Shown one piece after another: positions 2,597-21,401 of a stretch of 64,000 bases of DNA. Each line of letters opens with the position of its first letter. Positions within the stretch are counted from its first letter, which is position 1. The stretch is taken from the IMG/VR virus record IMGVR_UViG_3300032205_000001, positions 108,218 to 172,217 of that record; one strand, 5' to 3'. A program made the translations under genes and the position numbers. This stretch comes from a virus. Lineage: Duplodnaviria > Heunggongvirae > Uroviricota > Caudoviricetes. Below the pieces are notes generated by a model, which was given only the letters and a program-made list of their open reading frames with translations, searched no databases and was not told the DNA's origin.

Positions 2597-2788
2597 GCTC
2601 TCGCTGGAGAGATTCGACCGTCCGGGGTTATCGCGGAAGAAACCGGCTCTAGGCCGCACACCCATGCCTTCGGTACCTGCCGTTGGGATGGTAGCGGCAA
2701 CCTGCGCAGGTCTGAGCTGGGGACCTGAGGCGTCTACAGGAAACCGGGAAATGCGGTCGTTGCGTGGGTTCGAATCCCACGGAGAGCA
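2597..2788 (+). ncRNA. tmRNA-shaped small RNA (~192 nt)
   Basis: 5' GCTCTC...GATTCGAC (tmRNA-like D-loop analogue); helix GACCGT/GCGGTC; 3' T arm CGTGGG-TTCGAAT-CCCACG followed by GAGAGC-A pairing with the 5' end. Confidence 0.65.
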
Positions 2789-2791
2789 CGA

Positions 2792-3073
2792 ATGGCAAAG
2801 AGGACTAAAAAAGAACAGCGCCAGCTGGAGGCCCAGTGGCGCGACGAGGAGGAGTACCTCAAGGAGGAGATAGAGCGCGACCTTGAGGAGAACGTGCGTC
2901 GTCTGTGGAAAACGACGCGGTGGTACCTCGGTCACGAGGAGTGGACCTTCTACCAGGGTTTCGAAGAGGACACCTGGTGCGGTTGCGACTGCAACAGGTG
3001 GAACCGCTTTGAGCTGCAGAAGGCGATCGATCGTCTACGAGCTTGGCGTGCCCGCAGGGAATACTGGATCTAG
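2792..3073 (+). CDS. hypothetical protein
   Basis: 93-aa ORF starting 3 nt after the tmRNA-like RNA. Confidence 0.6.
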   Translation: MAKRTKKEQRQLEAQWRDEEEYLKEEIERDLEENVRRLWKTTRWYLGHEEWTFYQGFEEDTWCGCDCNRWNRFELQKAIDRLRAWRARREYWI

Positions 3074-3164
3074 CGGAAGACGGCGGAGTCGAACCGCAAG
3101 CGAGTTCATCACCCGCTCCATCCCGCTTCCAACGGGCTCAGGCTCCACAGCCTGTTCATCTTCC
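3074..3164 (-). tRNA. tRNA-Ser(GGA)
   Basis: GGAAGAT acceptor, loop TTGGAAG, long variable arm. Confidence 0.85.
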
Positions 3165-3168
3165 AGTG

Positions 3169-3378
3169 CTACCGACGTCTAGCACGTTTTTCCGGTAGCT
3201 GTATGACCTGATTGCTATTGCGGCTCGTTTTCACTGGGAGCTTCCTGATCTCGGCGAGGCGACGGGGATGAGCCCGTTTGGCCTCTGTCGTCGTCCCGCA
3301 CTGTTGGCAGTACGTGACGTAAGCATTTTCCGTGTCGTGAACGTCGAGGTGATCGTAGCCGCAATTGAAACACTTCAA
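3169..3378 (-). CDS. zinc-ribbon protein
   Basis: CxxC...CxxC (CFNC, CQQC). Confidence 0.65.
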   Translation of the reverse strand: MKCFNCGYDHLDVHDTENAYVTYCQQCGTTTEAKRAHPRRLAEIRKLPVKTSRNSNQVIQLPEKRARRR

Positions 3379-3384
3379 GGTGTT

Positions 3385-4054
3385 TTAATCCCAGTCCCCT
3401 CTCAGGTACCTCTTGAGCTGCCACTGCTTGTTCAGCACGTGATCAGTGACAACGCCGTCCTGAGAACGGATCGTTCTGCGTTTGTCTCCCCGCATCCCCG
3501 AACCGACCTGTTCACGCCGCGAAGATGACGTTTGCGCAGAATGTTGGTTGTGTGCCGCATCCCAGAGTCTTGCTCGAAGAACCTCAAGCGCAGTTTCTTT
3601 GTTGCTGTGCTGAGATCTTTCAGACTCACATCTAACCGTGATCCCGCTCGGTATGTGCGTGAGCACGACGGCGCTATCCGTCACGTTTCGGTGCTGGCCG
3701 CCGGCCCCAGATCCACGACAGAATTTCCAATCCAGGTCGCCATCGTTGACGATGACCTGAGTCGGAGAGCGCTCGGGCAGAACGGCAACCGTGATGGTGC
3801 TGGTCTGCATCCGTCCACGCTTCTCGGTGGGCGGCACCCTCTGCCATCTGTGCCCACCTGATTCGTTGGCAAACGCTACATCGGAGCCCTTGCCAGAGGC
3901 CTTGAAGACAAGAAGGCCTGGTCTCTCGCTCACGATTTCGAGGTCAAAGACCCCTCCGAGCCCCCATCTTTGCGTAGATCGCAAACTGGTCGCGAACGAG
4001 TAATTTGGCATCATCGCCGCCCTCGGCGGCCCTAATTTCGACAAAAACCGACAT
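3385..4054 (-). CDS. class I peptide chain release factor-like protein (RF1-type PxT, GGQ; lacks domain 1), expressed via +1 programmed frameshift, 222 aa
   Basis: ORF1 from ATG 4054 MSVFVEIRAAEGGDDAKLL...RRGL ends at CTT-TGA-C (3949-3943); the +1 frame continues DLEIVSERPG...GGHRWQRVPPTE...GSGAGGQHRN. Confidence 0.9.
3943..3958 (-). promoter_or_regulatory. prfB-type +1 frameshift cassette (internal SD GGAGG, 3-nt spacer, CTT TGA C)
   Basis: Minus-strand CGGAGG-GGT-CTT-TGA-C; same layout as E. coli prfB AGGGGG-TAT-CTT-TGA-C. Confidence 0.85.
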
Positions 4055-4072
4055 CCACCGACCATAGCCGAT

Positions 4073-4240
4073 TCAGATGTCTATGACAATAATCGTCGAC
4101 TTAGGCTCTTCTTGTCGAGGGCGTTCCTCTGGTTCCCAGGGGTGATGCTCGATTTGCAGCGGGGCATGGATGTCCTGCTTTGGGCAATGCGGACAGTAAT
4201 GCCAGGCTGGCCTCGCATGAGGGCATAGCGGTATGTCCAT
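4073..4240 (-). CDS. small Cys/His-rich hypothetical protein (55 aa)
   Basis: Manual translation MDIPLCPHARPAWHYCPHCPK...; fills the gap between RNA ligase and RF. Confidence 0.5.
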   Translation of the reverse strand: MDIPLCPHARPAWHYCPHCPKQDIHAPLQIEHHPWEPEERPRQEEPKSTIIVIDI

Positions 4241-4258
4241 ACTCAAAGTATAGCCCGT

Positions 4259-4876
4259 TCAGCTGTCGACGATCTTGCGACCTTCAACCTCGCCATATTT
4301 CGTCATGACGCGGTCGATCCATTTCTGGGTCTTGGCCTTCGACATGACGAGCTTATGTCCTTCTCCGCCTTTACCGACGACACCTTCTTCGGTGATGTCG
4401 GATATCTCTCCCTGTCGGACTTGGTCGACGAAGCCACGCGTCCATCGACGAGTGCCGAGAAATCTGGGAATGTTGAGATGCTCGAACAGCTTGAGAAATT
4501 GTTTCGGGCCGAGAATTCCCTTCTTGTACGGATTCACATCGAACAGGGTTAGCTGTTTTTCGTCTTCAGGTTCATGGAGCCCAGCGAACGAGCGAGGTCC
4601 CCAGAATTCAGTGAAAACGATCATCCGTTCCCATCGCTCATCGCGTGCGACCTTGATCAGTGGTTCAGCGAGAGTTCTTTCAAACACGGCGATGGCGCCG
4701 CCGAACACCTCGTCGGTTTCGTCAAACAAACGAGTGCGAGTGCCGTGCTTGTACCAGCCGCTCTTCCTGGCCCACTCCCAACGCAGGTTGGAACCGTCGA
4801 GCTTGTCGAAGACGTAGGCATCGAATTCTCGAAAGTCCTGCCCAGTGCTTCGCGGGATGGATGGATAGTCCTTCAT
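4259..4876 (-). CDS. ATP-dependent RNA ligase-like nucleotidyltransferase
   Basis: Motif I KLDGSN, EF(W)G motif, EGVV motif IV, C-terminal KAK. Confidence 0.8.
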   Translation of the reverse strand: MKDYPSIPRSTGQDFREFDAYVFDKLDGSNLRWEWARKSGWYKHGTRTRLFDETDEVFGGAIAVFERTLAEPLIKVARDERWERMIVFTEFWGPRSFAGLHEPEDEKQLTLFDVNPYKKGILGPKQFLKLFEHLNIPRFLGTRRWTRGFVDQVRQGEISDITEEGVVGKGGEGHKLVMSKAKTQKWIDRVMTKYGEVEGRKIVDS

Positions 4877-5145
4877 TGAACGAGATCATCATCATGCAGC
4901 CGGCAGTAGCCGAGAGGCTCTCCGCCACCGCCGCAGGTGCAGTCAGCCTCTTCAAGGCAGCCTTCAGGAAGACAGACCGCCGAAAAAGGATAATCCGCCC
5001 GAGGGAGCACCTTATCCATCTCGACGATGTATAGATGACCGACGGACGGGAACGACGCGGCAACCCCTCTGACTCGCCCACGACCCTTCAGGTCTGGTGT
5101 GTCGACGAAGACAAGCTGGTCTTGCCTGTACGTGTACTCGGCCAT
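4873..5145 (-). CDS. hypothetical protein
   Basis: 90-aa ORF coupled to the ligase gene by overlap. Confidence 0.6.
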   Translation of the reverse strand: MAEYTYRQDQLVFVDTPDLKGRGRVRGVAASFPSVGHLYIVEMDKVLPRADYPFSAVCLPEGCLEEADCTCGGGGEPLGYCRLHDDDLVQ

Positions 5146-5182
5146 TTACCCGGGGTATCAGGTGATGGTCGGATTGTCAAGA

Positions 5183-5275
5183 TGGAGGAGAGCTGAGGAA
5201 TCGGACCCCAACCGAGTTACTCACCCGGTCCCTTCCGCTTCAAACGGACGCCCGTCCCAGACGGGTTAACTCTCC
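5183..5275 (-). tRNA. tRNA-Ser(UGA)
   Basis: Loop TTTGAAG, long variable arm, CCA; T-loop variant TCCGATT. Confidence 0.8.
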
Positions 5276-5300: not shown

Positions 5301-5855
5301 TCACTCGTCCTGCTGCTCGGTCAAATCCGAGGTCCAGTACAGGTACGACGCCCAGGCGTCAGGAGCTGACGTCTGGCTGACCTGGATGGTCATCACCGGT
5401 ACCCAGTTCGGCTGCGCCGGCTTCGAAAGCAGACGCATTCCAGCCTGAGCCGGCGTGCGGTCTTTCTTGTCGCGGTTGCAGTCGTAGCAACAGGTGACGA
5501 TGTTGCTCCACTCGGTCTTTCCGCCCTGCGCGCGGGGAGTGACGTGGTCGTACGTCAGATCCGCCATCTTGCCCTTCATGCCACAGTACTGGCAGGTGTA
5601 CTTGTCGCGGGCGAAGATGTTGACACGAGAGAACTTGACCTTCTGCTTGTGGCGCCGGAACGCATTCAGCAGACGGACAACAGCGGGGATCTTGATGACG
5701 AGGCTGACCGACCGGACATCGTGGTCGTACTCCTCGATGACCTCAACCTTTCCCATCGTCAGTAGAGTGATAGCCCTCTGCCAGGAGATGGCCTTGATCG
5801 GCTCATATCCCTGAGAGAGCACAAGAGTTCGCAAATTCGTAGTAGCAGTCGACAC
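5301..5855 (-). CDS. HNH endonuclease
   Basis: CQYCG...TYDHVTPRAQGG...NIVTCCYDCNRDK. Confidence 0.92.
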   Translation of the reverse strand: MSTATTNLRTLVLSQGYEPIKAISWQRAITLLTMGKVEVIEEYDHDVRSVSLVIKIPAVVRLLNAFRRHKQKVKFSRVNIFARDKYTCQYCGMKGKMADLTYDHVTPRAQGGKTEWSNIVTCCYDCNRDKKDRTPAQAGMRLLSKPAQPNWVPVMTIQVSQTSAPDAWASYLYWTSDLTEQQDE

Positions 5856-5915
5856 GAGGGCACCTCCTTTCGTTTGGTTCTATATCTACAATCGTAACAG
5901 ATTTCGTTTTCAGGG

Positions 5916-5998
5916 TGCCCCGGGCGGGAGTCGAACCCGCACGCTTTTTACGGCGCTCGTTTTTGAAACGAGTGTGTCTACCACTCCACCACCAGGGC
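5916..5998 (-). tRNA. tRNA-Leu(CAA)
   Basis: Loop TTCAAAA, variable arm. Confidence 0.88.
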
Positions 5999-6071
5999 GC
6001 ACGCGACCGGAATCGAACCGGCAACCTTCCCGTTGCTTAGGCGGGATGTTCTACCTTTGAACTACGCGAGC
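5999..6071 (-). ncRNA. aberrant tRNA with 9-nt anticodon loop (CCTAAGCAA)
   Basis: D and T arms normal; U3-U70 mismatch; no discriminator or CCA, abuts tRNA-Leu directly. Confidence 0.7.
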
Positions 6072-6079
6072 ATGAGCCG

Positions 6080-6402: not shown

Positions 6403-6756
6403 TTATTTGATCAGAGGGAAGTTTGACACCTCCTTCTTCACAAGGGATCGGTGGCACGGCACGATGCCGATAGCCATAAGTTGACCATTCCAGGGAGCAT
6501 CGGGCTCTCGGATGGCAACATGAGGAATGTTCTTCTTCTTGAGCTTCTGTTCGAGTCGAAGAAGCTCAAGCTCGCTGCGCGCACCAAGGGCAACCGCTCG
6601 TGTATCAGACGGAAGGTTGCCAGGGCTGCTCTCGCCTGCGGCGTGAATCAGCTGGGCGCAGAGGTCACCGATGGGAGCATCGAGGCGACCAATGCAGTAG
6701 TGGTAGAGGCAATTCTCGACGGAAACGACCGGAGAATCGTCTGGACTTGCAGGCAA
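6403..6756 (-). CDS. peptidyl-tRNA hydrolase type 2 (Pth2)-like protein, start uncertain
   Basis: CAQLIHAAGES...SELELLRL...IREPD...MAIGIVP pattern resembling the PTH2 fold. Confidence 0.6.
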   Translation of the reverse strand: MPASPDDSPVVSVENCLYHYCIGRLDAPIGDLCAQLIHAAGESSPGNLPSDTRAVALGARSELELLRLEQKLKKKNIPHVAIREPDAPWNGQLMAIGIVPCHRSLVKKEVSNFPLIK

Positions 6757-7442: not shown

Positions 7443-8660
7443 CTACTTCTTGTACTTGCCGATGCCGAAATGGTCAGCAAGTGTCTTCTTCACGTCTTCG
7501 AAGATCTCGTTCACGGAGCGGTTCATGTCGAGCGTAACGACGTTCGACATGTCGCCGAACAGCTTCTTGTACTCGACGTCGCAGGCATGCGCGTATTTGA
7601 CGGCACTTTCCTCTGCGCTCTGTGAGTATCCGATGTCCATGCCGGCGGCGTAGTAATTGGGAACGCCCTTGTCTTTCATGATGCGCTCGAACGCCAGCCG
7701 AACTGGTGCGATGCAGTGGAAGATCAGATCGGGCTTCCGCATGCCACTGTAGACGTAGTTCAGAAGCTGCGTGTCTACGCCGCGAACCTTGTCTCGTACG
7801 TACGAGGTGTAGATATAGCGATCTGTGACGACGATGTTGTTCTCCTGCAGAGCAGGAATCACATCGTTTTCGTAGCGAGTGATCATGTCAGCCGCGTGCA
7901 GGATGCTGAACATGACCGGCGTCAGAAGTTTTTTCTTCTTGGCCTTCTTGATCGTCTTGCCGAGCAGCTTTGACGAATTCCACTTGGTGGTGGCGACGTC
8001 GTATCCGTGATCATCTAGCCAGTCGACGAGATGCTCCGTTTGAGTCGTCTTGCCCACGCCATCCACGCCCTCAAATACGATGAAGAGTCCTTTGTCGGTT
8101 TTCGTCTTGGCGTTGAGGATGTCGTTGACCTGGTCGTCGATGATATCTTCGACGAGGGCGCCTGGTGCCCGCATGATTGCTTCAACCGTCTTGTGGTGGG
8201 CGAAAGCGAAGCTCGCAGCATGGTGAATGCGGGCGTTGTCCTGGAAGGCCATGTGCGGCAACTTGCCAATGGAGCACCACTTCGCCTCGGCGGCGTCAGA
8301 TCCGGCCTTTGCTTCCGCGTTCGGCTTAACCTTGGCCCAGAACGTCACCCCTGATTTGTTGTGTCCGAATTCCGGGTATCCTGGATTCCACGGGGCAAGA
8401 AGGTGCAGCTCCTTTAGGTGAAGGCCGGTTTCTTCTTTGGCTTCCCTGCGAGCGCCATCTTCAACGGTCTCGTATTGCTCGACATGACCGCCGGGTAGAG
8501 CCCACCAGCCCTTGAACGGGGCGCCGCCACGTTTGGTGATCAATACTTCGATGCCGTTCTGAGGGTCTTCGCGGAAGATGGCCACGCAAGCAAGGACGCC
8601 AGTATCATTGGACGTCATCTCGCGAAGCTCGTCGCAAACCCGTCTCAACGACGTAAGCAT
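7443..8660 (-). CDS. tmk: Nudix hydrolase - thymidylate kinase fusion
   Basis: Nudix box GGHVEQYETVEDGARREAKEETGL; P-loop EGVDGVGKTTQ; DRY motif. Confidence 0.9.
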   Translation of the reverse strand: MLTSLRRVCDELREMTSNDTGVLACVAIFREDPQNGIEVLITKRGGAPFKGWWALPGGHVEQYETVEDGARREAKEETGLHLKELHLLAPWNPGYPEFGHNKSGVTFWAKVKPNAEAKAGSDAAEAKWCSIGKLPHMAFQDNARIHHAASFAFAHHKTVEAIMRAPGALVEDIIDDQVNDILNAKTKTDKGLFIVFEGVDGVGKTTQTEHLVDWLDDHGYDVATTKWNSSKLLGKTIKKAKKKKLLTPVMFSILHAADMITRYENDVIPALQENNIVVTDRYIYTSYVRDKVRGVDTQLLNYVYSGMRKPDLIFHCIAPVRLAFERIMKDKGVPNYYAAGMDIGYSQSAEESAVKYAHACDVEYKKLFGDMSNVVTLDMNRSVNEIFEDVKKTLADHFGIGKYKK

Positions 8661-10850: not shown

Positions 10851-10894
10851 CTTGCTTACCGTTGCTCCCTTCCGGGCCTGGCGGGGTTCACAAG
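10851..10894 (-). ncRNA. SRP RNA domain IV (helix 8) hairpin
   Basis: CTTGTGAACCCCGCCAGG-CCC-GGAA-GGG-AGCAACGGTAAGCAAG: CAGG/AGCA symmetric loop and GGAA tetraloop. Confidence 0.8.
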
Positions 10895-10902
10895 TTGAAT
10901 GC

Positions 10903-10931
10903 ACCCTAATGGACGAGCGGCGCATTGTCAA
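10903..10931 (-). promoter_or_regulatory. sigma70-type promoter upstream of the SRP-like hairpin
   Basis: TTGACA-17 bp-TAGGGT. Confidence 0.55.
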
Positions 10932-10938
10932 GAATTAG

Positions 10939-11067
10939 TCTGGCAGTGAAGAGTCGAACTTCTGTTTGATAACCGTTTCCGGTCGGTTCGCGAACGAACA
11001 AAGAAGTGGTCACGGAGCGCTACAGGCTTGCGCCTGCACCCTAGGGCCCTCCTAGGGAAGCTGCCAG
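10939..11067 (-). ncRNA. tRNA-like/Y-like hybrid RNA 1
   Basis: CTGGCAG/CTGCCAG ends, T-loop TTCGACT, two hairpins in place of the D arm, module TTGTTCG-TTCG-CGAACCGA...ACGGTTATC. Confidence 0.75.
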
Positions 11068-11069
11068 AT

Positions 11070-11202
11070 TGGTCGACAGGGTCGGGAATTGAACCCAACT
11101 ACCACCAGTCCCTTGGTAACCATAAATCTACGGTTCACCGAAGCGAACAAAGAGCGATCCACGGCGTTTTTTACTGGTGCTCTACCGTTGAGCTACCTGT
11201 CG
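11070..11202 (-). ncRNA. tRNA/Y-like hybrid RNA 2
   Basis: Full tRNA body with CCA; module TTGTTCGC-TTCG-GTGAACCG...ATGGTTACC inserted in the anticodon arm. Confidence 0.8.
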
Positions 11203-11203
11203 G

Positions 11204-11274
11204 TCCCCCACGGAAGAGTCGAACTTCCGTCCTTCGCTTATCAAGCAACCGCTCTGCCATTGAGCTAGTGGGGG
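11204..11274 (-). tRNA. tRNA-Ile(GAU)
   Basis: Loop TTGATAA. Confidence 0.82.
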
Positions 11275-11330
11275 TTGTTACAGATCTTTGTGCGTTTGTT
11301 CCAGATCCAGATCGGGGATAGCCTTTGATC

Positions 11331-11489
11331 ATGCTGATCGCAATCTGGCCACTCGTCATCGCCGTCATTGGCGCCCTTGTGTACGCGCTTGCGAGTAACT
11401 CGAAAGCGGCTGAACTTGGCCGCCTCGTGTTCTTCTGCGGGTTCTTCTGGCTGGTGTACAGCCTCGTTGGACACACGCTGAAGATGTGA
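11331..11489 (+). CDS. small two-TM membrane protein (52 aa)
   Basis: Manual translation MLIAIWPLVIAVIGALVYALAS...FFCGFFWLVYSLVGHTLKM; sits exactly between two tRNA-Ile genes. Confidence 0.65.
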   Translation: MLIAIWPLVIAVIGALVYALASNSKAAELGRLVFFCGFFWLVYSLVGHTLKM

Positions 11490-11492
11490 TCG

Positions 11493-11565
11493 TAGGACTG
11501 GCTGGATTTGAACCAGCTACCCCGCGCTTATCAAGCACGTGCTCTACCAAGTGAGCTACAGTCCC
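11493..11565 (-). tRNA. tRNA-Ile(GAU)
   Basis: Loop TTGATAA. Confidence 0.9.
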
Positions 11566-11575
11566 AAACTGAAAG

Positions 11576-11659
11576 TGCCGGTGACAGGGGTCGAACCTGC
11601 CTGGCCTTGCGGCCACTGCGCCCTGAACGCAGCGTGTCTACCAAATCCACCACACCGGC
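11576..11659 (-). tRNA. tRNA-Leu(CAG)
   Basis: Loop TTCAGGG, variable arm. Confidence 0.9.
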
Positions 11660-11663
11660 AAAA

Positions 11664-12069
11664 GGGAAGTCCGTGAGTGTGCTGCTACGCCAAATGCTCT
11701 AAGGGCTGTTTCGGCCGTCGGGGCTCTCGCACTTCTGCGTTCGCACTGCTTCCCCTCAGACCCGCATTTCCTCTCGTACTGCGCGGGCAAAGCCGATCCG
11801 TGCTACCTGACTGTTTGGTCACGAGCGCCGAAGCTGTTGGAGGAAACTTACCCGTTTGACCGGGGTTAGAAATGCCAACGTGCTGCAACGCCGTCTAGTC
11901 TTCGCGTCCCTGTGGTTATACTCCGGTCGAGCAGTCTATCCCTCGGTCGTACTATTGACCTTTGTTGGGGACCGGAAAAGCTTGATTTCGCCTGCGCCGG
12001 GCTACTTTCTACCACTCGCAACTCTTCAAAGGATTGCTGCTTCTAAGCCAACCTCCTCATCGTCCTTCC
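11664..12069 (-). ncRNA. ~405-nt structured RNA containing 23S rRNA H43 and sarcin-ricin loop sequences
   Basis: GGAGGTTGGCTTAGAAGCAGCAATCCTTTGAAGAG at 12022-12056; CCCGC-GC-AGTACGAGAGGAA-AT-GCGGG at 11761-11787; ends pair GGAAG/CTTCC; bounded by two tRNAs. Confidence 0.75.
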
Positions 12070-12150: not shown

Positions 12151-12525
12151 CTAACCGAACCTGTTGCTGCCGAACGGCGCTATCATGCATCGTACGCCAG
12201 CATCGTCAAGAATTCCTGCCATCCTTCGACGACCAGCATCGTTAAATGAGTGCAGGACAACGAACTTTGGCCGCATCTCTTCCGGCAAGGTGGCGATGAA
12301 TTCAGCCACGTGTGTGCCGGTCTTCTCGTCGGATGCTGGACGACCAGCCGCAGCTAGCTCGGACAGGTCGTGGTCAAGGTACGCGAGATCGAACTTGGTC
12401 TTGGCAAGAGCCGCGCAAGCATCTGCGTAGTTCATGACCGCTGTGATGTCCATGCCGATGCGATCCATCTTGAACTTCTTGTGGCGCTCAGCGTCGTCGT
12501 CTAGGAAGAAAATTTTCTGGTTCAT
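12151..12525 (-). CDS. cyclic-phosphate processing receiver (cREC)-like domain protein
   Basis: FLDDD...YLDHDL...TG...LHSFN..GRRRM signature. Confidence 0.8.
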   Translation of the reverse strand: MNQKIFFLDDDAERHKKFKMDRIGMDITAVMNYADACAALAKTKFDLAYLDHDLSELAAAGRPASDEKTGTHVAEFIATLPEEMRPKFVVLHSFNDAGRRRMAGILDDAGVRCMIAPFGSNRFG

Positions 12526-12533
12526 ATGATCTT

Positions 12534-12668
12534 TGGTTGGACAGGTCGGGCTCGAACCGACAACACTCCGCGTTCTAGGCGATAACCATTCCTCGGTCGG
12601 TTCACTTGCGTGAACAAGGAATTGAAAAACGGCGTTTTAGAGGCCTCTACCAATTGGGCTACTGTCCA
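12534..12668 (-). ncRNA. tRNA/Y-like hybrid RNA 3
   Basis: TGGACAG/CTGTCCA-A-CCA; module TTGTTCAC-GCAA-GTGAACCG...ATGGTTATC in the 5' strand of the anticodon stem; residual loop CTAGAAC. Confidence 0.8.
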
Positions 12669-12678
12669 AAAAGTTTCG

Positions 12679-12808
12679 TTGCGCAACCAGGACTCGAACC
12701 TGGAACATCCCGCTTAATAGGCGATAACCATCTCTCGATCGGTTCGGTTGCCCGAACAATGTGGTGAAAAACGGTGTTTTAGGCGCTCTACCCTTGAGCT
12801 ATTGCGCA
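12679..12808 (-). ncRNA. tRNA/Y-like hybrid RNA 4
   Basis: TGCGCAA/TTGCGCA; module TTGTTCGG-GCAA-CCGAACCG...ATGGTTATC; residual loop CTATTAA. Confidence 0.8.
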
Positions 12809-12819
12809 GTAACAGATCG

Positions 12820-12946
12820 AGCGGCGAGGAGGAATTGGACCTCCACTTTCTCCTTGCATGGGATAACCATCCTCAGGCGGTTCGGTTGCCCGAACAAGAT
12901 GGCGAAGACGGAGATTTTAGACGTGCTACCGTTACACTATCGCCGC
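12820..12946 (-). ncRNA. tRNA/Y-like hybrid RNA 5
   Basis: GCGGCGA/TCGCCGC; module TTGTTCGG-GCAA-CCGAACCG...ATGGTTATC; residual loop CATGCAA. Confidence 0.8.
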
Positions 12947-12948
12947 AG

Positions 12949-13021
12949 TGGGAGCGGAGGGATTTGAGCCCTAACACCGAACGGCTTATGAGACCGTCGT
13001 CCTGACCCGCAGGTCGCTCCC
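12949..13021 (-). tRNA. tRNA(CAU), elongator Met or Ile2
   Basis: Loop CTCATAA; reduced D arm; T-loop CTCAAAT. Confidence 0.7.
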
Positions 13022-13022
13022 G

Positions 13023-13217
13023 TTATACAAGGCCGTGCTTTTCAGCCAGCCACAGTGGAATCACTAGGGTGCCCTCCGTGTCTTCCTTGTAGACCTCGGA
13101 GTCGTCGTCGATCTGAGACTTAGGAAGCCAGACCTCCTCGCCTTCGATCTCCACGAGGAGGGCCTTCTCGGTCTCACGAAGTGCCTTTGCGTTCTGGATT
13201 TGGACTGTTTCCGCCAT
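13023..13217 (-). CDS. small acidic hypothetical protein
   Basis: 64 aa, ETEKALLV...WLPKSQI; SD-like sequence upstream. Confidence 0.7.
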   Translation of the reverse strand: MAETVQIQNAKALRETEKALLVEIEGEEVWLPKSQIDDDSEVYKEDTEGTLVIPLWLAEKHGLV

Positions 13218-13303
13218 CCGAGGAACCCTCGATACTTGGACGGGAAACCATTGTCAAGAACCGTCGGTTGCTGGATCTACCGAACTTGTAGTATTCATGG
13301 GAC

Positions 13304-13852
13304 ATGTTCAGGCCACTGATCGACGCTTTCCGTGCCGAGCTTCAGGAAGACGAGACGTCCACCGATCGCCCAGAGCCAGAAGGCGAAAAGAAGGCTGCTC
13401 CAGATGCTGAAGCCTCGCCGAAGCGGAGCAAGCACGACCGCGCCTCCGATCGGATGGGCTTCATCCTGAGCACTCCGCTTGCGAACATGTCCCGCAAGAA
13501 GATGATGAAGATGATCCCGCATCTGATGCATCACTTCACGAAGGGTCACGGCAAGCCAGGCGAAGATGGCAGCGTTGACCGGGATGACCTGTCCACGCTG
13601 AGTCGTCATGCGAAGCACATCTCCGACCAGGCCAACGGCATTCGTCGTATGCCTGGAGCGGCTCACCACCTCGCTGGTCACCTCACGCGGCACGTTGCTG
13701 ACTGCCACGATCGTATGGCCAAGACGATGAAGATGGCCGACATGCCAGAAGAGGCCGACCTTCACGCGAACGAGGGTGGCAAGTTCCGTGCGCTATCGAA
13801 GCACCACAAGATGACCGCTCGCCGTCACGGCATCTACGACGAGAGCTACTAG
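13304..13852 (+). CDS. His-rich hypothetical protein
   Basis: 182-aa ORF antisense to the array. Confidence 0.65.
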   Translation: MFRPLIDAFRAELQEDETSTDRPEPEGEKKAAPDAEASPKRSKHDRASDRMGFILSTPLANMSRKKMMKMIPHLMHHFTKGHGKPGEDGSVDRDDLSTLSRHAKHISDQANGIRRMPGAAHHLAGHLTRHVADCHDRMAKTMKMADMPEEADLHANEGGKFRALSKHHKMTARRHGIYDESY

Positions 13853-14088
13853 AAACGATCCCAGGGCGGCATGTGCGGCGAACGCTGCACGTGATCCCTC
13901 CAGCCAGTGGCGCCAGGCACGAACGAACCAAGGTACGGCTGCCAGTGTGGCTTGACTCGATGAACCTCATCGCGAGCGTTCTCGAAGTCTAGCTTGCCGT
14001 CTACGTAGTCGACGTAGAGGAAGATCGTGTCCTTGACCTCTCCGCAGCCCTGGTAAACGTTCAGCAGTGTCAGCTTCCTCGTGCGCAT
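13849..14088 (-). CDS. hypothetical protein
   Basis: ORF from ATG 14088 with SD AAAGGA. Confidence 0.55.
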   Translation of the reverse strand: MRTRKLTLLNVYQGCGEVKDTIFLYVDYVDGKLDFENARDEVHRVKPHWQPYLGSFVPGATGWRDHVQRSPHMPPWDRF

Positions 14089-14102
14089 GTCGTCCTTTCT
14101 AG

Positions 14103-14173
14103 TCCACCACGCTGGACTTGAACCAGCAACCAACCGCTTATAGGGCAGCCGCTCTACATTGAGCTAGTGGTGG
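14103..14173 (-). tRNA. tRNA-Ile(UAU)
   Basis: Loop CCTATAA. Confidence 0.75.
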
Positions 14174-14174
14174 A

Positions 14175-14244
14175 TGGCAGGCTGTGAGGGAATCGAACCC
14201 CCCTTCCCGGCTTTGGAGACCAGGACCGTCCCAGACGACAACCT
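14175..14244 (-). tRNA. tRNA-Trp(CCA), reduced D arm
   Basis: Loop CTCCAAA, G73, CCA. Confidence 0.75.
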
Positions 14245-14249
14245 AAGAG

Positions 14250-14321
14250 CGCATCTACGAGGACTTGAACCTCGGTTTCAGCTTTCGGAGAGCTGTGTCC
14301 TATCCACTGGACGATAGATGC
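14250..14321 (-). tRNA. tRNA-Arg(CCG)
   Basis: Loop CTCCGAA. Confidence 0.88.
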
Positions 14322-14322
14322 A

Positions 14323-14397
14323 TGGTACCCCTACCAGGACTCTAACCCGGATCTGCCGGTCCGTAGCCGACCGCTCTTTACATTGAGCTATAGGGGC
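14323..14397 (-). tRNA. tRNA-Arg(ACG)
   Basis: Loop CTACGGA, CCA; T-loop TTAGAGT. Confidence 0.8.
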
Positions 14398-14398
14398 A

Positions 14399-14474
14399 TG
14401 GTGACTCCAAGAGGACTCGAACCTCTAACTTCCTGTTCCGTAGACAGGCGCTCTATCCATTGAGCTATGGAGCC
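14399..14474 (-). tRNA. tRNA-Arg(ACG)
   Basis: Loop CTACGGA, CCA. Confidence 0.9.
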
Positions 14475-14489
14475 AAGAAACGATCGGCT

Positions 14490-14744
14490 CTACGGTGAAC
14501 CGGAGCCGAGATGCTTAATGTACGCTGCCAGCCGGGCGACGACTTCATCAGCTTGGGGGTAGCTGATGTCGCGTAGGACTTGCTCGATGGTGGACAGAAT
14601 TTTGGTGTCTGGCCAGCCGCATCCACGAGCATCCTTGTAGAACGAGACCCAACAAGGGATCAAATCGTTCCGCCGGAGAAACTCGAAGACGATCTCAAGC
14701 GGTATCCCGCGAGAATTGTATGCGGCGAACACGTTGCCCACCAC
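14490..14744 (-). CDS. hypothetical protein
   Basis: 84-aa ORF; F..Y...G.PL motif loosely like an AlaRS segment. Confidence 0.55.
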   Translation of the reverse strand: MVGNVFAAYNSRGIPLEIVFEFLRRNDLIPCWVSFYKDARGCGWPDTKILSTIEQVLRDISYPQADEVVARLAAYIKHLGSGSP

Positions 14745-14919
14745 GTACCTTCCGTCTCTGGTCTCTCCTATGTAGAAAAGCTTTCGGCGTCCCGCGACAT
14801 TTCGTACCTCCGTTGTGAATGAGTTAAGTACGCGTTGCCCGACTTACGCGGCAGGGTAGCCACCGCGCACCATACCTGGCTGCACCATTAAGATTATCTT
14901 GAGTGGAACACGTACCTAG

Positions 14920-14993
14920 AGCCCGCACCCAGAGTCGAACTGGGCCATCCTGCTTACCAAGCAGGCGTGCCGAACCGCGATCACTTTACGGGC
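14920..14993 (-). tRNA. tRNA-Thr(GGU)
   Basis: Loop TTGGTAA; unusual D arm. Confidence 0.75.
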
Positions 14994-14997
14994 ATGC

Positions 14998-15203
14998 TGC
15001 TTCTGGTCGGATTTGAACCGACGTCTCTCGATTCGTCATGCGTCGCATGTAGTCGACCGATTGATCAGACCGGCCTCCTTGAAGGTGATCTGCCTCCGTG
15101 CGACTTACCCGGTCAGCTCAGCCGTAAGAGACGATCTATCCCTCCGTGCTGTGCCGATGAGCTGCTGCTTGATCGAGCGCCTTAACCACTAGGCTACAGG
15201 AGC
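14998..15203 (-). ncRNA. tRNA body with ~130-140-nt insertion at the anticodon loop
   Basis: GCTCCTG acceptor, D arm TAGCCTAGTGGTTAAGGC, stem CTCGAT/ATCGAG enclosing the insert, T arm GTCGG-TTCAAAT-CCGAC. Confidence 0.8.
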
Positions 15204-15358
15204 AAAAGTTTGATTCTCCCAGTTTGTGCTCGTGACTAGACCTTTCCGTCGGGCCCTGCTGACGCTCCACATTACTGGGCGTCCGTCCGAGTTACTGGTT
15301 GGTATCTCATCGGCTGGTTCTAGAAGGGCCGACTTTGACCTCCAGACGAATCACTCCG

Positions 15359-15431
15359 TACACGAGCTGGGACTCGAACCCAGGATATTCGGCATGTGAA
15401 GCCGACGTTCTTGCCGCTGAACTACTCGTGC
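15359..15431 (-). tRNA. tRNA-Val(CAC)
   Basis: Loop TTCACAT. Confidence 0.88.
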
Positions 15432-15436
15432 GTGAC

Positions 15437-15542
15437 GTGAACAAGGTGTGCATCTTGGAGATCAGCAACCACCGTTTAGAAGCGGCAGCGCATGACAGTC
15501 GGGTTATTAACCTGATTTGGTAACCAATCTGCGTCGGTTCAC
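15437..15542 (-). ncRNA. Y-RNA-like element A
   Basis: GTGAAC-C-GA...TGGTTACC...CCAA...TT-GTTCAC. Confidence 0.7.
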
Positions 15543-15546
15543 TTCG

Positions 15547-15618
15547 TGCGCGATACTGGAATCGAACCAGTGATCTCTTGCATGTCAAGCAAGCGTTCTG
15601 CCGCTGAACTAATCGCGC
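15547..15618 (-). tRNA. tRNA-Val(GAC)
   Basis: Loop TTGACAT. Confidence 0.9.
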
Positions 15619-15621
15619 ATA

Positions 15622-15680
15622 GACGAACAAGTGGGTGCTCGTGGGTGATTTACAAGATAACCCATGGGCTTCGGTTCGTC
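15622..15680 (-). ncRNA. Y-RNA-like element B
   Basis: GACGAAC-C-GA...TGGGTTATC...ACCCAC...TT-GTTCGTC. Confidence 0.75.
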
Positions 15681-15802
15681 GAAAATCTGTGCCTTTGACT
15701 CCAGGAAAAATCCGGTTATATTTGATCCGATGATCTGAGACCAGTGTATCGGTCTCATTGATGCCCGACCTCTGGAGTGATGGTGGGCGGCTGGCGCTTT
15801 GA

Positions 15803-15878
15803 TGGTGACCCTGGTGGGAATCGAACCCAACATTTCCGGGGTGAAAAGCCGGTTGCTTAGCCATTGGCAGACAGGGCC
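15803..15878 (-). tRNA. tRNA-Glu(UUC)
   Basis: Loop TTTTCAC, CCA. Confidence 0.8.
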
Positions 15879-15882
15879 ATGT

Positions 15883-16071
15883 ATGAAGAAGGAAGATCTA
15901 GTTCGCTGGTTGAAAGTTTACGGAGACCACAAGGACAGCTGTGGAATTACCCAGGTGATCAGAGATCACCGGGCGAAAACCGACTCGGAGGGCAGAAAAA
16001 TCTACCCAGAATGCAGCTGCGGCTGGACTGAGATCAGCCGGTCGCTGGACAAACTATTCAAGCTGAATTGA
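15883..16071 (+). CDS. hypothetical protein (62 aa)
   Basis: ATG 15883 to TGA 16071 fills the gap between two tRNAs; HxxxC...CxC. Confidence 0.5.
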   Translation: MKKEDLVRWLKVYGDHKDSCGITQVIRDHRAKTDSEGRKIYPECSCGWTEISRSLDKLFKLN

Positions 16072-16140
16072 GCACGCCGAGGGAGTCGAACCCACTACTT
16101 ACAGGGTTGCAATCTGTAGCCTGGCCGCCAGGTGACGTGC
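16071..16140 (-). tRNA. tRNA-Cys(GCA)
   Basis: Loop TTGCAAC, U73. Confidence 0.8.
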
Positions 16141-16146
16141 AAAGCC

Positions 16147-16212
16147 CACGAACAAAGAGATGAACCTTGGGGTGATCATTAACAGTGATAACCAAAGCTC
16201 GAACGGTTCGCG
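16147..16212 (-). ncRNA. Y-RNA-like element C
   Basis: CGCGAAC-C-GT...TTGGTTATC...CCAA...TT-GTTCGTG. Confidence 0.72.
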
Positions 16213-16221
16213 GAAAAAATT

Positions 16222-16286
16222 GAACGAACAAGTTGGTTGCTCCAAGGAGTCACATGTTAGGTAACCTTGGTGCGATCGGTTCGCTC
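16222..16286 (-). ncRNA. Y-RNA-like element D
   Basis: GAGCGAAC-C-GA...CCAAGGTTACC...CCTTGG...TT-GTTCGTTC. Confidence 0.75.
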
Positions 16287-16324
16287 GAAAAGTTCGGTGA
16301 GCAAGAATTTGTGACTGGTTAGGT

Positions 16325-16398
16325 TGGTCGGGAGGCGGATTTCAACCGCTACCTCCGGGGGTTCTAGCCCCGGCGCTCTAGCAATTAAGCTACCCCGG
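16325..16398 (-). ncRNA. aberrant tRNA, anticodon AGA, short class I body, weak acceptor stem
   Basis: CCGGGG-CTAGAAC-CCCCGG; encoded CCA; only about 5 acceptor pairs. Confidence 0.6.
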
Positions 16399-16424
16399 CG
16401 GTAATCCAATCACGACGGCTCACC

Positions 16425-16501
16425 TGGCATCGCTACAGGGATTCGAACCCTGGTTTCCGCGCTGAGAACGCAGCGTACTCGGCCGACTGTACGATAGCGA
16501 C
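16425..16501 (-). tRNA. tRNA-Glu(CUC)
   Basis: Loop TTCTCAG, CCA. Confidence 0.85.
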
Positions 16502-16507
16502 AAAATA

Positions 16508-16566
16508 GCGAACAAGTTTGTGCTCGTGGGGTACATTTGGCAGATAACCCACATGCTTCGGTTCGC
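16508..16566 (-). ncRNA. Y-RNA-like element E
   Basis: GCGAAC-C-GA...GTGGGTTATC...CCCAC...TT-GTTCGC. Confidence 0.75.
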
Positions 16567-16567
16567 A

Positions 16568-16644
16568 TGGTGACCCTACTGGGATTTGAACCCGAGATTT
16601 CAGCCTTGAGAGGGCCGCGTCCTAAACCGTTGGACGATAGGGCC
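16568..16644 (-). tRNA. tRNA-Glu(CUC)
   Basis: Loop CTCTCAA, CCA. Confidence 0.9.
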
Positions 16645-16647
16645 AAA

Positions 16648-16714
16648 GAACGAACAAGAAATGGAGCAGGGGTTGTTCATCCAATTGAGGTAACCCTGTT
16701 CCGACGGTTCGTCC
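16648..16714 (-). ncRNA. Y-RNA-like element F
   Basis: GGACGAAC-C-GT...CAGGGTTACC...CCCTG...TT-GTTCGTTC. Confidence 0.75.
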
Positions 16715-16725
16715 AAAAAGAAAGC

Positions 16726-16811
16726 GATGAACAAGTAGCGCGTCTGGCTTGCAGGTTCGACCCTGCACGGCTTTCGCCGCTTTTCCGATAACTCAAACGC
16801 CTCGGTTCACC
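16726..16811 (-). ncRNA. Y-RNA-like element G with internal T-arm-like hairpin
   Basis: GGTGAAC-C-GA-G-GCGTTTG-AGTTATC...GCAGG-GTCGAA-CCTGC...CAGACGC...TT-GTTCATC. Confidence 0.72.
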
Positions 16812-17297: not shown

Positions 17298-17372
17298 TGG
17301 AGCTGACGCCCGGACTTGAACCGGGAACCTCGTCTTTACGAAAGACTTGCACCGCCATTGTGCTACGCCAGC
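17298..17372 (-). tRNA. tRNA-Thr(CGU)
   Basis: Loop TTCGTAA, CCA. Confidence 0.88.
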
Positions 17373-17381
17373 TAATATTCG

Positions 17382-17453
17382 TTCGGGCGGAAGGAGTCGA
17401 ACCCTCAACATTAGGCTCCAAAGGCCCACGTTCTGCCATTGAACTACGCCCGA
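17382..17453 (-). tRNA. tRNA-Gln(UUG)
   Basis: U1-A72, loop CTTTGGA. Confidence 0.88.
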
Positions 17454-19109: not shown

Positions 19110-19182
19110 CGGATGCAACGAGGATCGAACTCGCCTGGTCTTGATCGACAATCAAGCGCCCTCACCAGAGAGCAATACATCC
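19110..19182 (-). tRNA. tRNA-Asp(GUC)
   Basis: Loop TTGTCGA, G73. Confidence 0.78.
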
Positions 19183-20168: not shown

Positions 20169-20263
20169 GGTGACTCTCCCTGAAATGGTTTGACGTGCCC
20201 TATGTCTGGGCTACGCGAACAATCGCAGAAGGGTCTGACATCGAATGCCGGTAATTGTCTACG

Positions 20264-20351
20264 CGGAAGACGGAGGTATCGATCCCCAACCGGGTCACCC
20301 CGGTCCATCTCAGTTCGAATGAGCGCCCCTGCCATCAGAGGTTCATCTTCC
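20264..20351 (-). tRNA. tRNA-Ser(CGA)
   Basis: GGAAGAT acceptor, loop TTCGAAC, long variable arm. Confidence 0.8.
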
Positions 20352-20425
20352 ATGCTGCCTCAACCCTTGCGGGAAACCGTTGAAGGCTTCGGTGCTGCCA
20401 CCGAGGTTTTACAAAGCACACAGCC

Positions 20426-20501
20426 TGGTGCCCCCAGAAGGACTCGAACCTTCAACCAACCGATTAAGAGTCGGGTGCTCTAACCATTGAGCTATGGAGG
20501 C
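20426..20501 (-). tRNA. tRNA-Lys(CUU)
   Basis: Loop CTCTTAA, CCA. Confidence 0.92.
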
Positions 20502-20558
20502 GAACTTCATCAGGTACTACCCATGCTGATGAGCCATGCCGTCGCGGCAAACGTCGGG

Positions 20559-20631
20559 TGCCCCAGTTCTGAGTCGAACAGAAATCTTCCCGTCTTCAGC
20601 GGGACGCTTAGACCACCTAAGCTACCGGGGC
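20559..20631 (-). tRNA. tRNA-Phe(GAA)
   Basis: Loop CTGAAGA. Confidence 0.85.
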
Positions 20632-20751
20632 GAAATGGGGACTTGGCGGTCCCCGCGTCGTTCATCTATTCAGTTATCAGGAGCCTCGCTTGGGTTGTCC
20701 GGGATTCTCTCTTGGAGAAGTTATGCCCAGTCGCGCTTTGCTTTGGCTTGG

Positions 20752-20823
20752 TTCGGGCTCAGGGATTCGAACCCCGATTCATGGTTCCAGAGACCAGTGT
20801 CCTGCCTGTTGGACGAAGCCCGA
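20752..20823 (-). tRNA. tRNA-Gln(CUG)
   Basis: U1-A72, loop CTCTGGA. Confidence 0.85.
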
Positions 20824-20847
20824 ATGATTACTGCTGCATCGTTGAAG

Positions 20848-20918
20848 TAGGGCCGCAGGGAATCGAACCCTGATCACAAGGTTAAAAGCCAAGTGCTCTG
20901 CCATTGAGCTACGACCCC
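20848..20918 (-). tRNA. tRNA-Lys(UUU)
   Basis: Loop CTTTTAA; two U-U mismatches in the anticodon stem. Confidence 0.75.
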
Positions 20919-20961
20919 AGAATTAGGGACGTAGATCTGTTTTCGAATGGTCAACATGTCG

Positions 20962-21045
20962 TGGGAGCGCCAGGAGTCGAACCTGAAGTGACCGCAAGGG
21001 CCAACGCGTTTACAGCGCGCCTGATGCACCGGCATCAACACTCCC
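20962..21045 (-). tRNA. tRNA-Tyr(GUA)
   Basis: Loop CTGTAAA, variable arm. Confidence 0.85.
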
Positions 21046-21054
21046 AGAAACTAG

Positions 21055-21088
21055 AAAAGCCCCCCGGGTTTCCCTGGGAGGCCTCTCT
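21055..21088 (-). terminator. possible intrinsic terminator
   Basis: Imperfect GC hairpin followed by TTTT on the minus strand. Confidence 0.35.
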
Positions 21089-21329
21089 GAGTTCTAGGTA
21101 TTTGTTGGTCTACCTAGCTTGAGGGGCCTCCAGTGGGATCATTCGCGCGCTTGGCCTGGAGATACTGCGGGAGGGGGTGGCTTTCGACGCCGACGGTACC
21201 CAAGGTCTCCAGGCCCGACGCAATAAACCCTTTGCGCCACGAGCACGTGCTCGTTCCGCAGAGGTCTTGCGCTAGGTATGTGGACAGGGATGACATTGAA
21301 GGCGTGCTCTTGGTTTGGTGCTTATCTCG

Positions 21330-21401
21330 TTGCGGAAACGGGGGTCGAACCCGATGTCTCTGGGTTATGAGCCCAGCGTGGAACCGTTTCACTCTTCCGC
21401 G
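21330..21401 (-). tRNA. initiator tRNA-fMet(CAU)
   Basis: C1-A72 mismatch, GGG/CCC anticodon stem, loop CTCATAA. Confidence 0.85.

Follow-up and report, generated by a model that had tools for sequence, protein, structure and literature searches.

What does a large phage gain by placing, between its tRNA genes, RNAs that resemble parts of the stable RNAs of its host? Clusters of tRNA genes in phages are usually explained by codon usage or by the evasion of anticodon nucleases. The locus considered here lies in a 64,000-nucleotide stretch (hereafter the window; bases 108218-172217 of a 175,284-bp IMG/VR virus, completeness estimate 80%) and forms an island on the minus strand, 319-21401, in which a near-complete set of tRNA genes is accompanied by look-alikes of signal recognition particle (SRP) RNA, of the GTPase-associated centre (GAC) and sarcin-ricin loop (SRL) of 23S rRNA and of Y RNA, and by genes for a frameshift-gated release factor (RF), an RNA ligase, a cyclic-phosphate-processing receiver (cREC) protein and a Pth2-like protein. 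A sequence-only reading had joined these parts into a single counter-defence system. At the level of sequence, identity of primary and secondary structure, covariation, conservation and gene context show that each of the RNAs reproduces a site at which a stable host RNA binds protein; as to the island as a whole, we lean, with some reservation, towards an expression and processing platform, built on the tRNA array, for cargo acquired independently, rather than one co-evolved circuit.

The window belongs to a T4-like phage genome, with genes for a T4-type portal, a RecA-like recombinase and a DnaB-like helicase, and has a G+C content of ~56%. There is no close cultured relative (the best cultured-phage match of the portal is only 36% identical), and the island is syntenic in three relatives: IMGVR_UViG_3300015360_000024 (hereafter G001; 193,958 bp, 91% complete), which is the nearest and has an island DNA identity of 65-83%, and the JGI contigs L259 and L260.

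RNA copies of protein-binding sites among the tRNA genes

The copy of the GAC sits flush between tRNA-Pro (12070) and tRNA-Leu (11659), on the tRNA strand, and carries within it the copy of the SRL:

11664-12069, minus strand: GAC mimic RNA of 406 nt, with a closing helix, H43 (12022-12056), a 331-nt insert and an H44-like segment (11690-11677)
11761-11787, minus strand: SRL-core hairpin, with the 12-nt AGUACGAGAGGA, inside the insert of the GAC RNA

In E. coli, H42-H44 of 23S rRNA (1051-1108) is the fragment that binds uL11 and thiostrepton. The resemblance to this region that had been noted from the sequence is borne out: The H43 core is exact at 14 of 14 positions (12036-12049) within 35-36 nt that are 89-91% identical to E. 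coli 23S 1049-1083, GCGUAGCAGCACAC at 11690-11677, 331 nt past H43, is a near copy of the H44 loop region, and the outermost ends of the RNA pair with each other. Scanning IMG/VR with the exact H43 14-mer returned at least 119 contigs; among the contigs listed were 39 distinct RNAs of the same build, which together with the window copy and that of phage XacN1 make 41 members. From one closing strand to the other, each runs through H43, the junction UUUAAAGAG, 46-339 nt of insert and GCGUAAUAGCACAC; the H44-like motif of the window copy has 3 mismatches to that of the family.

The closing helix is represented by 40 distinct sequences among the 41 members and comprises on average 7.5 pairs in a row; exchanging the 3' strands between members lowers this to 3.0 (maximum of 200 permutations, 3.46). 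By per-position counts, 19 members have U-A as the 1058/1080 pair, 15 have G-C and 7 have A-U, and the family has a signature of its own, GCACAC in place of the GCUCAC of rRNA. A tRNA lies no more than 300 nt away in 25 of the 41, usually at 7-21 nt, and in 31 of 31 cases the nearest tRNA shares the strand of the GAC RNA. Cultured carriers in which the H44 partner was verified are XacN1, GAP32, Pseudomonas phage Milchi and Aeromonas phage 4_4572. Rfam 15 gives only sub-threshold local matches to large-subunit rRNA at the GAC loci, with no such family found there, and the literature searched describes no phage mimic of the GAC or the SRL; the phage GAC RNAs form a large family not found in Rfam 15 or in the papers searched.

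In XacN1 the GAC RNA (L187, XacN1 150244-150606) is intergenic, occupying a ~360-nt unannotated gap directly after a gene annotated as a 2'-5' RNA ligase. Listeria phage matches to the H43 probe proved spurious, lying within a coding sequence. No GAC RNA was found anywhere in the 194-kb G001 or in L260, in which tRNA-Pro and tRNA-Leu are spaced by 90 nt and 5 nt, respectively. An EF-Tu homologue is present in the islands of G001 (C1:45126-45707, inside L006; 208 bits) and L260 (62-1243) and absent from the window phage, which alone of these three has the GAC/SRL RNA.

The claimed SRL look-alike holds for the 12-nt core and not beyond it: AGUACGAGAGGA is exact at 11769-11780, enclosed by the hairpin CCCGCGC...GCGGG, whereas the full 14-nt core (...GGACC) is not kept, the window reading GGAAA, and the rRNA flanks are not matched. 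This is the sole exact copy of the 12-mer in the 175-kb genome, against a chance expectation of ~0.008 copies in the window. The complete 81-kb phage L148, which has another GAC member, carries a homologous hairpin at the equivalent relative position; two of its stem pairs show compensatory changes, and it has GGGA in the loop where the window copy has GAGA. From this comparison the hairpin is, in our judgment, a genuine structured element of one GAC sub-family. Part of its agreement with the ribosomal loop may be unspecific, since bulged-G motifs (S-turns) with a GNRA cap are common modules of RNA. Scanned with the canonical 14-mer of the rRNA SRL, IMG/VR yielded only chance or genuine 23S matches, and no class of SRL mimics in tRNA arrays.

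The second class of copied site is that of the SRP:

10851-10894, minus strand: helix-8 (domain IV) hairpin of SRP RNA, RF00169, 40.7 bits

At 40.7 bits the hairpin reaches the RF00169 gathering score of 40 (E 2.9e-5 for the window), which upholds the claimed SRP RNA look-alike for helix 8 only: its 44 nt span positions 24-66 of the 97 in the model, and the extended helix 5, in which the two termini come together as the distal end, is missing. The tip is identical in G001 and L260, with the closing pair U-A changed to C-G in G001, and a conserved promoter-like box, TTGACA-N17-TAGGGT, lies just upstream (~10905-10936). When IMG/VR was scanned with the 18-nt pattern of the tip, 43 contigs were found, about a dozen of which have minimal hairpins or full small SRP RNAs between tRNAs on large phage contigs; the chance expectation is ~4 matches for the 16 specified bases, as judged from the 62 matches of an unrelated 14-mer. 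An alignment of 12 phage SRP hairpins has compensatory changes in 4 of 6 consensus pairs. On this sequence evidence we take SRP hairpins to be a recurrent cargo of phage tRNA arrays, and the literature searched describes no SRP mimic from phages. The gene 3' of the hairpin encodes a soluble 279-aa viral protein without assigned function, and because that product is soluble, the idea that the hairpin is a membrane-targeting leader was dropped.

A hairpin that lacks the distal part of the RNA could point to host take-over by titration, in which mimic RNAs act as sponges, to the detriment of host functions: Reduced to helix 8, the minimal hairpin would trap Ffh without the distal GTPase-activating end of 4.5S RNA. 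The window hairpin, confined to model positions 24-66 of 97, has the form that such a trap calls for. However, the SRP RNA of G001 matches the full RF00169 model (1-97, 42.1 bits), and L026 and L037 also carry full small SRP RNAs; therefore, replacement fits better than poisoning, and we regard titration as quite unlikely.

The third class comprises modules resembling Y RNA, which here take two forms, free or built into tRNA-shaped RNAs:

10940-11202, minus strand: two tRNA-shaped RNAs with a closed Y-like module (11070-11202 and about 10940-11072)
12532-12948, minus strand: three tandem tRNA-shaped RNAs of ~140 nt, each with a closed Y-like module in the anticodon arm
15519-16809, minus strand: seven more Y-like modules (motif copies)
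15620-15682, 16145-16214, 16221-16287, 16505-16569 and 16647-16715, minus strand: the five of these seven that are free two-stem RNAs of ~65-70 nt

Their motif, CGA(A/G)CCG-N9-10-GGUUA(U/C)C, is present in 12 copies, all on the minus strand within 10968-16809, with no copy elsewhere in the 175-kb genome; the syntenic stretch of G001 has seven copies and that of L260 three. CGA(A/G)CCG(AAG) pairs with UUGUUCG, leaving one C unpaired, and CCGA is found in 8 of the 12. The partner UUGUUCG lies 4-6 nt upstream in five copies, giving a tetraloop-capped helix in the anticodon arm of a tRNA-shaped RNA, and 25-31 nt downstream in another five, giving a helix that closes a free RNA of ~65-70 nt. The consensus fold of the free modules has two stems, with compensatory changes in 10 of 17 pairs.

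Of the claimed likeness to Y RNA, one part probably stands and another does not. Rfam cut-offs are not reached: The model for nematode Y-RNA homologues (sbRNA) scores the free modules at 33.6 and 28.4 bits against a cut-off of 38, and the YrlA model gives 28.2 bits against a gathering score of 69 (a YrlA match at 17321-17434 proved to be two adjoining ordinary tRNAs). The 12 modules nonetheless resemble the Y RNA that Ro binds, and G001 encodes a TROVE/Ro60 protein (557 aa, 127 bits) outside the island, with an additional Y-like copy ~240 nt upstream of that gene, behind a sigma70-like promoter; in this copy the UUGUUCG partner lies 142 nt downstream. The motif contacted by Ro is GGUCCGA in animals and GNCGAAN0-1G in bacteria (PMC4201824), and CGAGCCGAAG of G001 fits it. 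The same study reported YrlA RNAs beside Ro60 in 22 phages (PMC4201824). From motif, fold and gene context, the Y-RNA reading of the modules is likely.

The tRNA-shaped RNAs that bear these modules had been described as anticodon-less tRNA bodies. That they are tRNA-shaped, with a module of 51-56 nt in the anticodon arm, is confirmed, but with its intron option ARAGORN calls three of them intron tRNAs, with inserts of 51-56 nt at positions 30-33. The point of excision is ambiguous, as is, in consequence, any anticodon, and a safer wording is tRNA bodies with a Ro-type helix in the anticodon arm, i.e., a circular permutation of the YrlA plan.

A fourth proposed imitation, that of tmRNA, is rejected:

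2597-2788, plus strand: former tmRNA candidate, a 7-bp acceptor stem and a canonical T arm around ~150 nt

Neither Rfam nor ARAGORN calls a tmRNA here, even at relaxed thresholds (ARAGORN -m at ps80 finds no tmRNA and no tag), and the acceptor stem UGCUCUC/GAGAGCA on the plus strand has no G-U pair and thus no G3-U70. The weak matches to RF00023 (tmRNA) in the genome are tRNA-Ala genes. Inside the element is a degenerate Y-like motif, CGACCG-N5-GGUUAUC, by which it may be a further tRNA/Y chimera, on the opposite strand; it was not found in G001.

If all of these RNAs were non-functional debris, i.e., fragments of host RNA caught by recombination in a fluid tRNA array and now decaying, we would expect island content to differ even between close relatives, as it does between the window phage and its own, and copies to be damaged, as the window GAC copy is by a pair-breaking change; the HNH endonuclease genes interspersed in the island also suit such a history. 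Extensive covariation in the GAC closing helix, the Y-like modules and the SRP hairpins, however, largely refutes this explanation. Moreover, the GAC family has its own signature (GCACAC rather than the GCUCAC of rRNA), the mimics have the form of exact minimal hairpins on non-host closing stems, and the elements occur across phages of unrelated hosts. We consider debris highly improbable.

The gated release factor and other proteins

The release factor is encoded in two parts:

3947-4054, minus strand: release factor, frame 0; 36 codons from ATG 4054, MSVFVEIRAAEGG...RRGL, ending with CTT (3949-3947)
3385-3945, minus strand: release factor, +1 frame; 186 codons, with PPT (at the PxT position) and GGQ

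CTT is followed by TGA (3946-3944) and preceded by the Shine-Dalgarno (SD)-like GGAGG (3957-3953) and the 3-nt spacer GGT, so that the cassette GGAGG-N3-CUU-UGA-C can be read straight from the sequence. With this cassette, an RF-1 domain of 103.5 bits and conservation among relatives (G001, L259, L260, L012, L013 and L018), a frameshift-gated RF is present as had been proposed. It has no domain 1 and is of the RF1 type: It scores 190-192 bits with prfA models and 121 with prfB, and its PPT aligns with the PAT of RF1. The gate falls at one conserved codon in 13 of 15 phage RF loci, a set to which the window RF does not belong, and takes several forms:

CUU-UGA-C, +1 shift: window phage, G001, L012, L013, L018; also L259 and L260
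CUU-UGA-A, +1 shift: L021
CUU-UAG-C, +1 shift: L011, L014/15, L022
in-frame UAG: L017
in-frame stop, codon not read: L019
in-frame UGA: L023/24
uninterrupted RF: L016, L020

For an RF1-type factor the UAG-gated versions would be truly autoregulatory. A 2025 survey found prfA without any programmed frameshift and the prfB motif without TAG (PMC12421855); a prfB-style gate on an RF1-type factor extends programmed frameshift control to a class with none in that survey.

Domain 1 of release factors contacts the uL11 stalk, and the open frames of all 12 phage RF homologues, at 180-264 aa, are too short to include it. This bears again on titration, according to which a GAC mimic would strip exchangeable uL11 from ribosomes, blunting RelA-dependent stringent control and shifting the balance of RF1 and RF2, and a phage RF without domain 1 would be indifferent to the loss. 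The GAC family has kept the H43 and H44 loops together with the G-C pairs, which form their tertiary contacts, a point in favour of such a sponge. Against this, GAC RNA and RF occur together in only 2 of the 12 RF-bearing genomes.

Three other proteins of the island had been linked to RNA repair or quality control:

4259-4876, minus strand: RNA-ligase-like nucleotidyltransferase, 205 aa, KLDGSN motif
12151-12525, minus strand: cREC protein, PF20274, 48.4 bits against 27
6403-6756, minus strand: Pth2-like protein, PF01981, 26.4 bits against a cut-off of 23

The first can be called RNA-ligase-like by sequence: It matches phrog_548 (E 1.9e-10, profile positions 3-154 of 341), has motif I (KxDG) as KLDGSN and comes from a highly conserved family, with PF09414 in many homologues of 59-80% identity and no direct Pfam or PDB sequence match of the protein itself. 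Its orthologue in G001 has an in-frame TAG (L006:17174-17176) where the window has the Trp codon TGG, which could reflect a pseudogene, an error or read-through; no tRNA with a CUA anticodon was found in the examined parts of G001. The cREC assignment is secure at 48.4 bits, well past the Pfam gathering score of 27, and the domain is present in 12 of 22 large phage genomes and in 0 of 14 control cell genomes. The Pth2 assignment is borderline, the match passing its cut-off but spanning only profile positions 48-114 of 115, i.e., the C-terminal two thirds; PTH2 is clear in other large phages and marginal in the window phage.

One circuit or separate cargo

If the island were one system, its parts should travel together. 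Six elements were looked for in 22 genomes of large phages, each picked for carrying at least one of RF, SRP RNA or GAC RNA, and in this small and selected sample RF was found in 12 genomes, PTH2 in 13, cREC in 12, SRP in 7, GAC RNA in 7 and TROVE in 5; the combination of RF, SRP, GAC, cREC and PTH2 was found in the window genome only. The GAC motif was present in 0 of 5 SRP-bearing phage genomes and an SRP match in 0 of 5 GAC-bearing ones, and ten further RF-bearing genomes yielded one GAC motif and no SRP. Because the elements assort in this manner across the 22 genomes and differ among three close relatives, with the GAC RNA missing in G001 and L260, the comparison argues that the parts of the island have been gained and lost separately, and the supposed co-conservation of the island elements is not borne out.

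These results weigh on the three-layer counter-defence interpretation, under which spare tRNAs replace cleaved ones, the ligase and cREC protein reseal breaks, and the mimics serve as decoys for toxins or nucleases aimed at SRP RNA, GAC, SRL, tmRNA and tRNA. Such a scheme has precedents, in that phages are known to counter host attack by replacing tRNAs and repairing RNA (e.g., T4 Pnk/Rnl1 against PrrC) and suitable attackers exist, among them the SRL toxins VapC20/26, a GAC-modifying Rhs ADP-ribosyltransferase and many anticodon nucleases. The parts are real and all concern translation or RNA quality control, cREC is as frequent as noted above, the GAC RNA of XacN1 adjoins a 2'-5' RNA ligase gene, and the SRL hairpin is kept in L148 with its two compensatory stem pairs. 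Nevertheless, the elements do not travel together, the stretch proposed as a tmRNA decoy is no tmRNA, and no phage tRNA array yielded an SRL mimic in the scan with the canonical 14-mer. The GGGA of L148 alters the loop where the window has GAGA and presumably changes the A attacked by depurinating toxins. Anticodon nucleases recognise anticodon loops, and the module-bearing tRNA bodies have no normal ones. RtcB was not found in the window phage or G001, and no search was aimed at Pnk. Taken together, we judge three-layer counter-defence unlikely.

The platform reading, towards which we lean, draws support from the single strand and tight packing of tRNAs and Y-like modules. ARAGORN finds 47 tRNAs, every one on the minus strand, and four more came from Rfam or relaxed ARAGORN; the claim of a near-complete tRNA set is therefore sound, with 51 genes for 19 amino acids and the initiator, Cys being the only gap. 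The window phage genome encodes no suppressor tRNA.

319-21401, minus strand: tRNA array, 47 ARAGORN tRNAs and 4 further, 51 in all
21330-21401, minus strand: initiator tRNA-fMet, with C1xA72 and three G-C pairs in the anticodon stem
19110-19182, minus strand: second tRNA-Asp (Rfam or relaxed ARAGORN)
12949-13021, minus strand: CAU tRNA (Rfam or relaxed ARAGORN)
20263-20351, minus strand: tRNA-Ser(CGA) (Rfam or relaxed ARAGORN)
14998-15203, minus strand: tRNA body with a ~135-nt insert (Rfam tRNA, 47.8 bits)

The box AATTCTTGACAATGC occurs three times on the minus strand (10922-10936, 12200-12214 and 13248-13262), two copies having one or few changes, and the copy ahead of the SRP hairpin is kept in G001 along with the -10-like hexamer TAGGGT; the three boxes are probably island promoters.

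Several smaller observations concern the array itself. The genes for tRNA-Leu(CAA) and tRNA-Leu(AAG), at 5914-6072 on the minus strand, overlap by 4 nt, and several window tRNAs have A34 anticodons (AAG, AAU, AGA and ACG, the last twice). The ~135-nt insert of the tRNA body at 14998-15203 matches no Rfam family and is below the size of group I introns; an earlier note had reported motifs common to it and the insert of the GAC RNA. A 'tRNA-Pyl(cta)' called in L259 (8359-8434) is a homologue of tRNA-Arg(CCU) with one additional C in the anticodon loop, and was rejected as an amber suppressor. A Leu-type tRNA at L006:15234-15311 also has an 8-nt anticodon loop, in which ARAGORN reads the 4-nt anticodon 'taag'; these tRNAs of the relatives could be frameshift-suppressor-like or could stem from sequencing errors. 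Megablast matches to Bacillus phage P59 and Streptomyces phage Ankus reflect mere tRNA similarity. Other phage tRNA arrays contain true tmRNAs (168 and 147 bits), truncated RNase-P-like RNAs (46 and 34 bits, sub-threshold) and a GOLLD RNA (165 bits); these finds lie at L038:1981-2341, L059:1928-2292, L031:7049-7289, L175:6157-6399 and L122:685-1176. Two further protein genes lie in the island:

7443-8660, minus strand: fusion of NUDIX and thymidylate kinase, present in L260 and missing at the equivalent place in G001
5301-5855, minus strand: HNH endonuclease (profile match)

A mechanism compatible with the platform can be outlined, in which transcription, processing, binding partners and benefit are what we infer. 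A few sigma70-like promoters would drive transcription of the array, all on one strand, and RNase P and RNase Z would free the RNAs lying between tRNAs. Each mimic RNA would then bind its matching protein off that protein's normal context: the SRP helix-8 hairpin Ffh; the three-way junction of H43 and H44, which in the window bears the added sarcin-ricin-type hairpin, uL11 and translational GTPases or other recognisers of that site; and the bulged CGAACCG/UUGUUCG helix, free or grafted onto tRNA bodies, Ro60. Because the RF needs a +1 shift at CUU-UGA-C, its synthesis would rise when termination at UGA is slow. The Pth2-like hydrolase, compact RNA ligase and cREC protein would be further protein cargo, and the cargo, with the nearly full tRNA set, would sustain phage translation when the host apparatus is limiting or damaged, whatever the cause.

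Generalizing from this outline, it is possible, though we hold it tentatively, that the tRNA arrays of large phages express 'RNA-site mimics' of host docking sites (GAC and SRL on one RNA, SRP helix 8, and the Ro helix on tRNA bodies) that bind translational GTPases, uL11, Ffh, Ro or site-directed toxins, the window phage being the richest example and the mimics working there with an RF1-type factor that senses termination failure. Several points tell against the platform reading and its mechanism. In the window GAC copy C1076->A breaks one H43 pair, alone in the family, and the whole GAC RNA (410 nt folded) is no better than shuffled sequence (z +0.46). The invariance of the H43 loop is in part an artefact, because members were gathered with the exact H43 14-mer; that selection does not touch the H44 motif, the closing helix or the tRNA context, which are independent observations. 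No protein neighbour of the GAC RNA recurs among 136 neighbouring open reading frames compared with Pfam, no Ro gene was found in the window phage genome (80% complete), and a generic sigma70 scan detected no promoter enrichment, the sigma70/terminator scan being uninformative.

That phage tRNA clusters can also carry copies of the protein-binding sites of SRP RNA, the GAC and Y RNA raises the question of whether RNA imitations of ribosomal and SRP sites are a means by which phages manipulate or protect translation. At least two classes of mimic recur in many unrelated large phages, cultured ones included, and because cultured carriers exist, the idea of mimicry can be tested at the bench.

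Comparison with known systems

The phage GAC RNA has in common with the GAC of bacterial 23S rRNA the loop and stem of H43, the junction UUUAAAGAG and the H44 loop GUAAUA with two G-C pairs, and has a closing helix, unrelated in sequence to H42, where H42 stands. Unlike its ribosomal counterpart it is free-standing, phage-encoded and placed between tRNA genes, with GCACAC instead of GCUCAC and, in the window copy, a 331-nt insert replacing about nt 1090 and the change C1076->A. The SRP hairpin shares helix 8, the GGAA tetraloop and the symmetric and asymmetric loops with bacterial small SRP (4.5S) RNA, from which it differs in having no distal helix and in starting a predicted transcript that runs into the 279-aa gene.

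With Y RNA and YrlA the modules share a bulged lower helix with CCGA(A)G in its 5' strand, the two-stem shape and a tRNA-like partner domain, and in the nearest relative, G001, one copy adjoins a TROVE gene. In contrast to those RNAs, they occur in 12 copies within a tRNA array, and five are circularly permuted and grafted into the anticodon arm of a tRNA. The phage RF and the +1 frameshift of prfB (RF2) have the SD-like GGAGG, the 3-nt spacer and CUU UGA C in common, whereas the phage product is of the RF1 type, its site lies within domain 2 rather than at codon 26, and relatives have CUU UAG C or an in-frame stop at the equivalent place.

Finally, phage tRNA clusters with extra stable RNAs are known, including species 1/2 of T4 and the tmRNA and GOLLD RNA of jumbo phages, and there, too, structured RNAs occupy 'tRNA slots' on the tRNA strand. 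What sets the window island apart from those clusters is the nature of its cargo: a single array holds several recognisable imitations of the sites at which host RNAs bind proteins.

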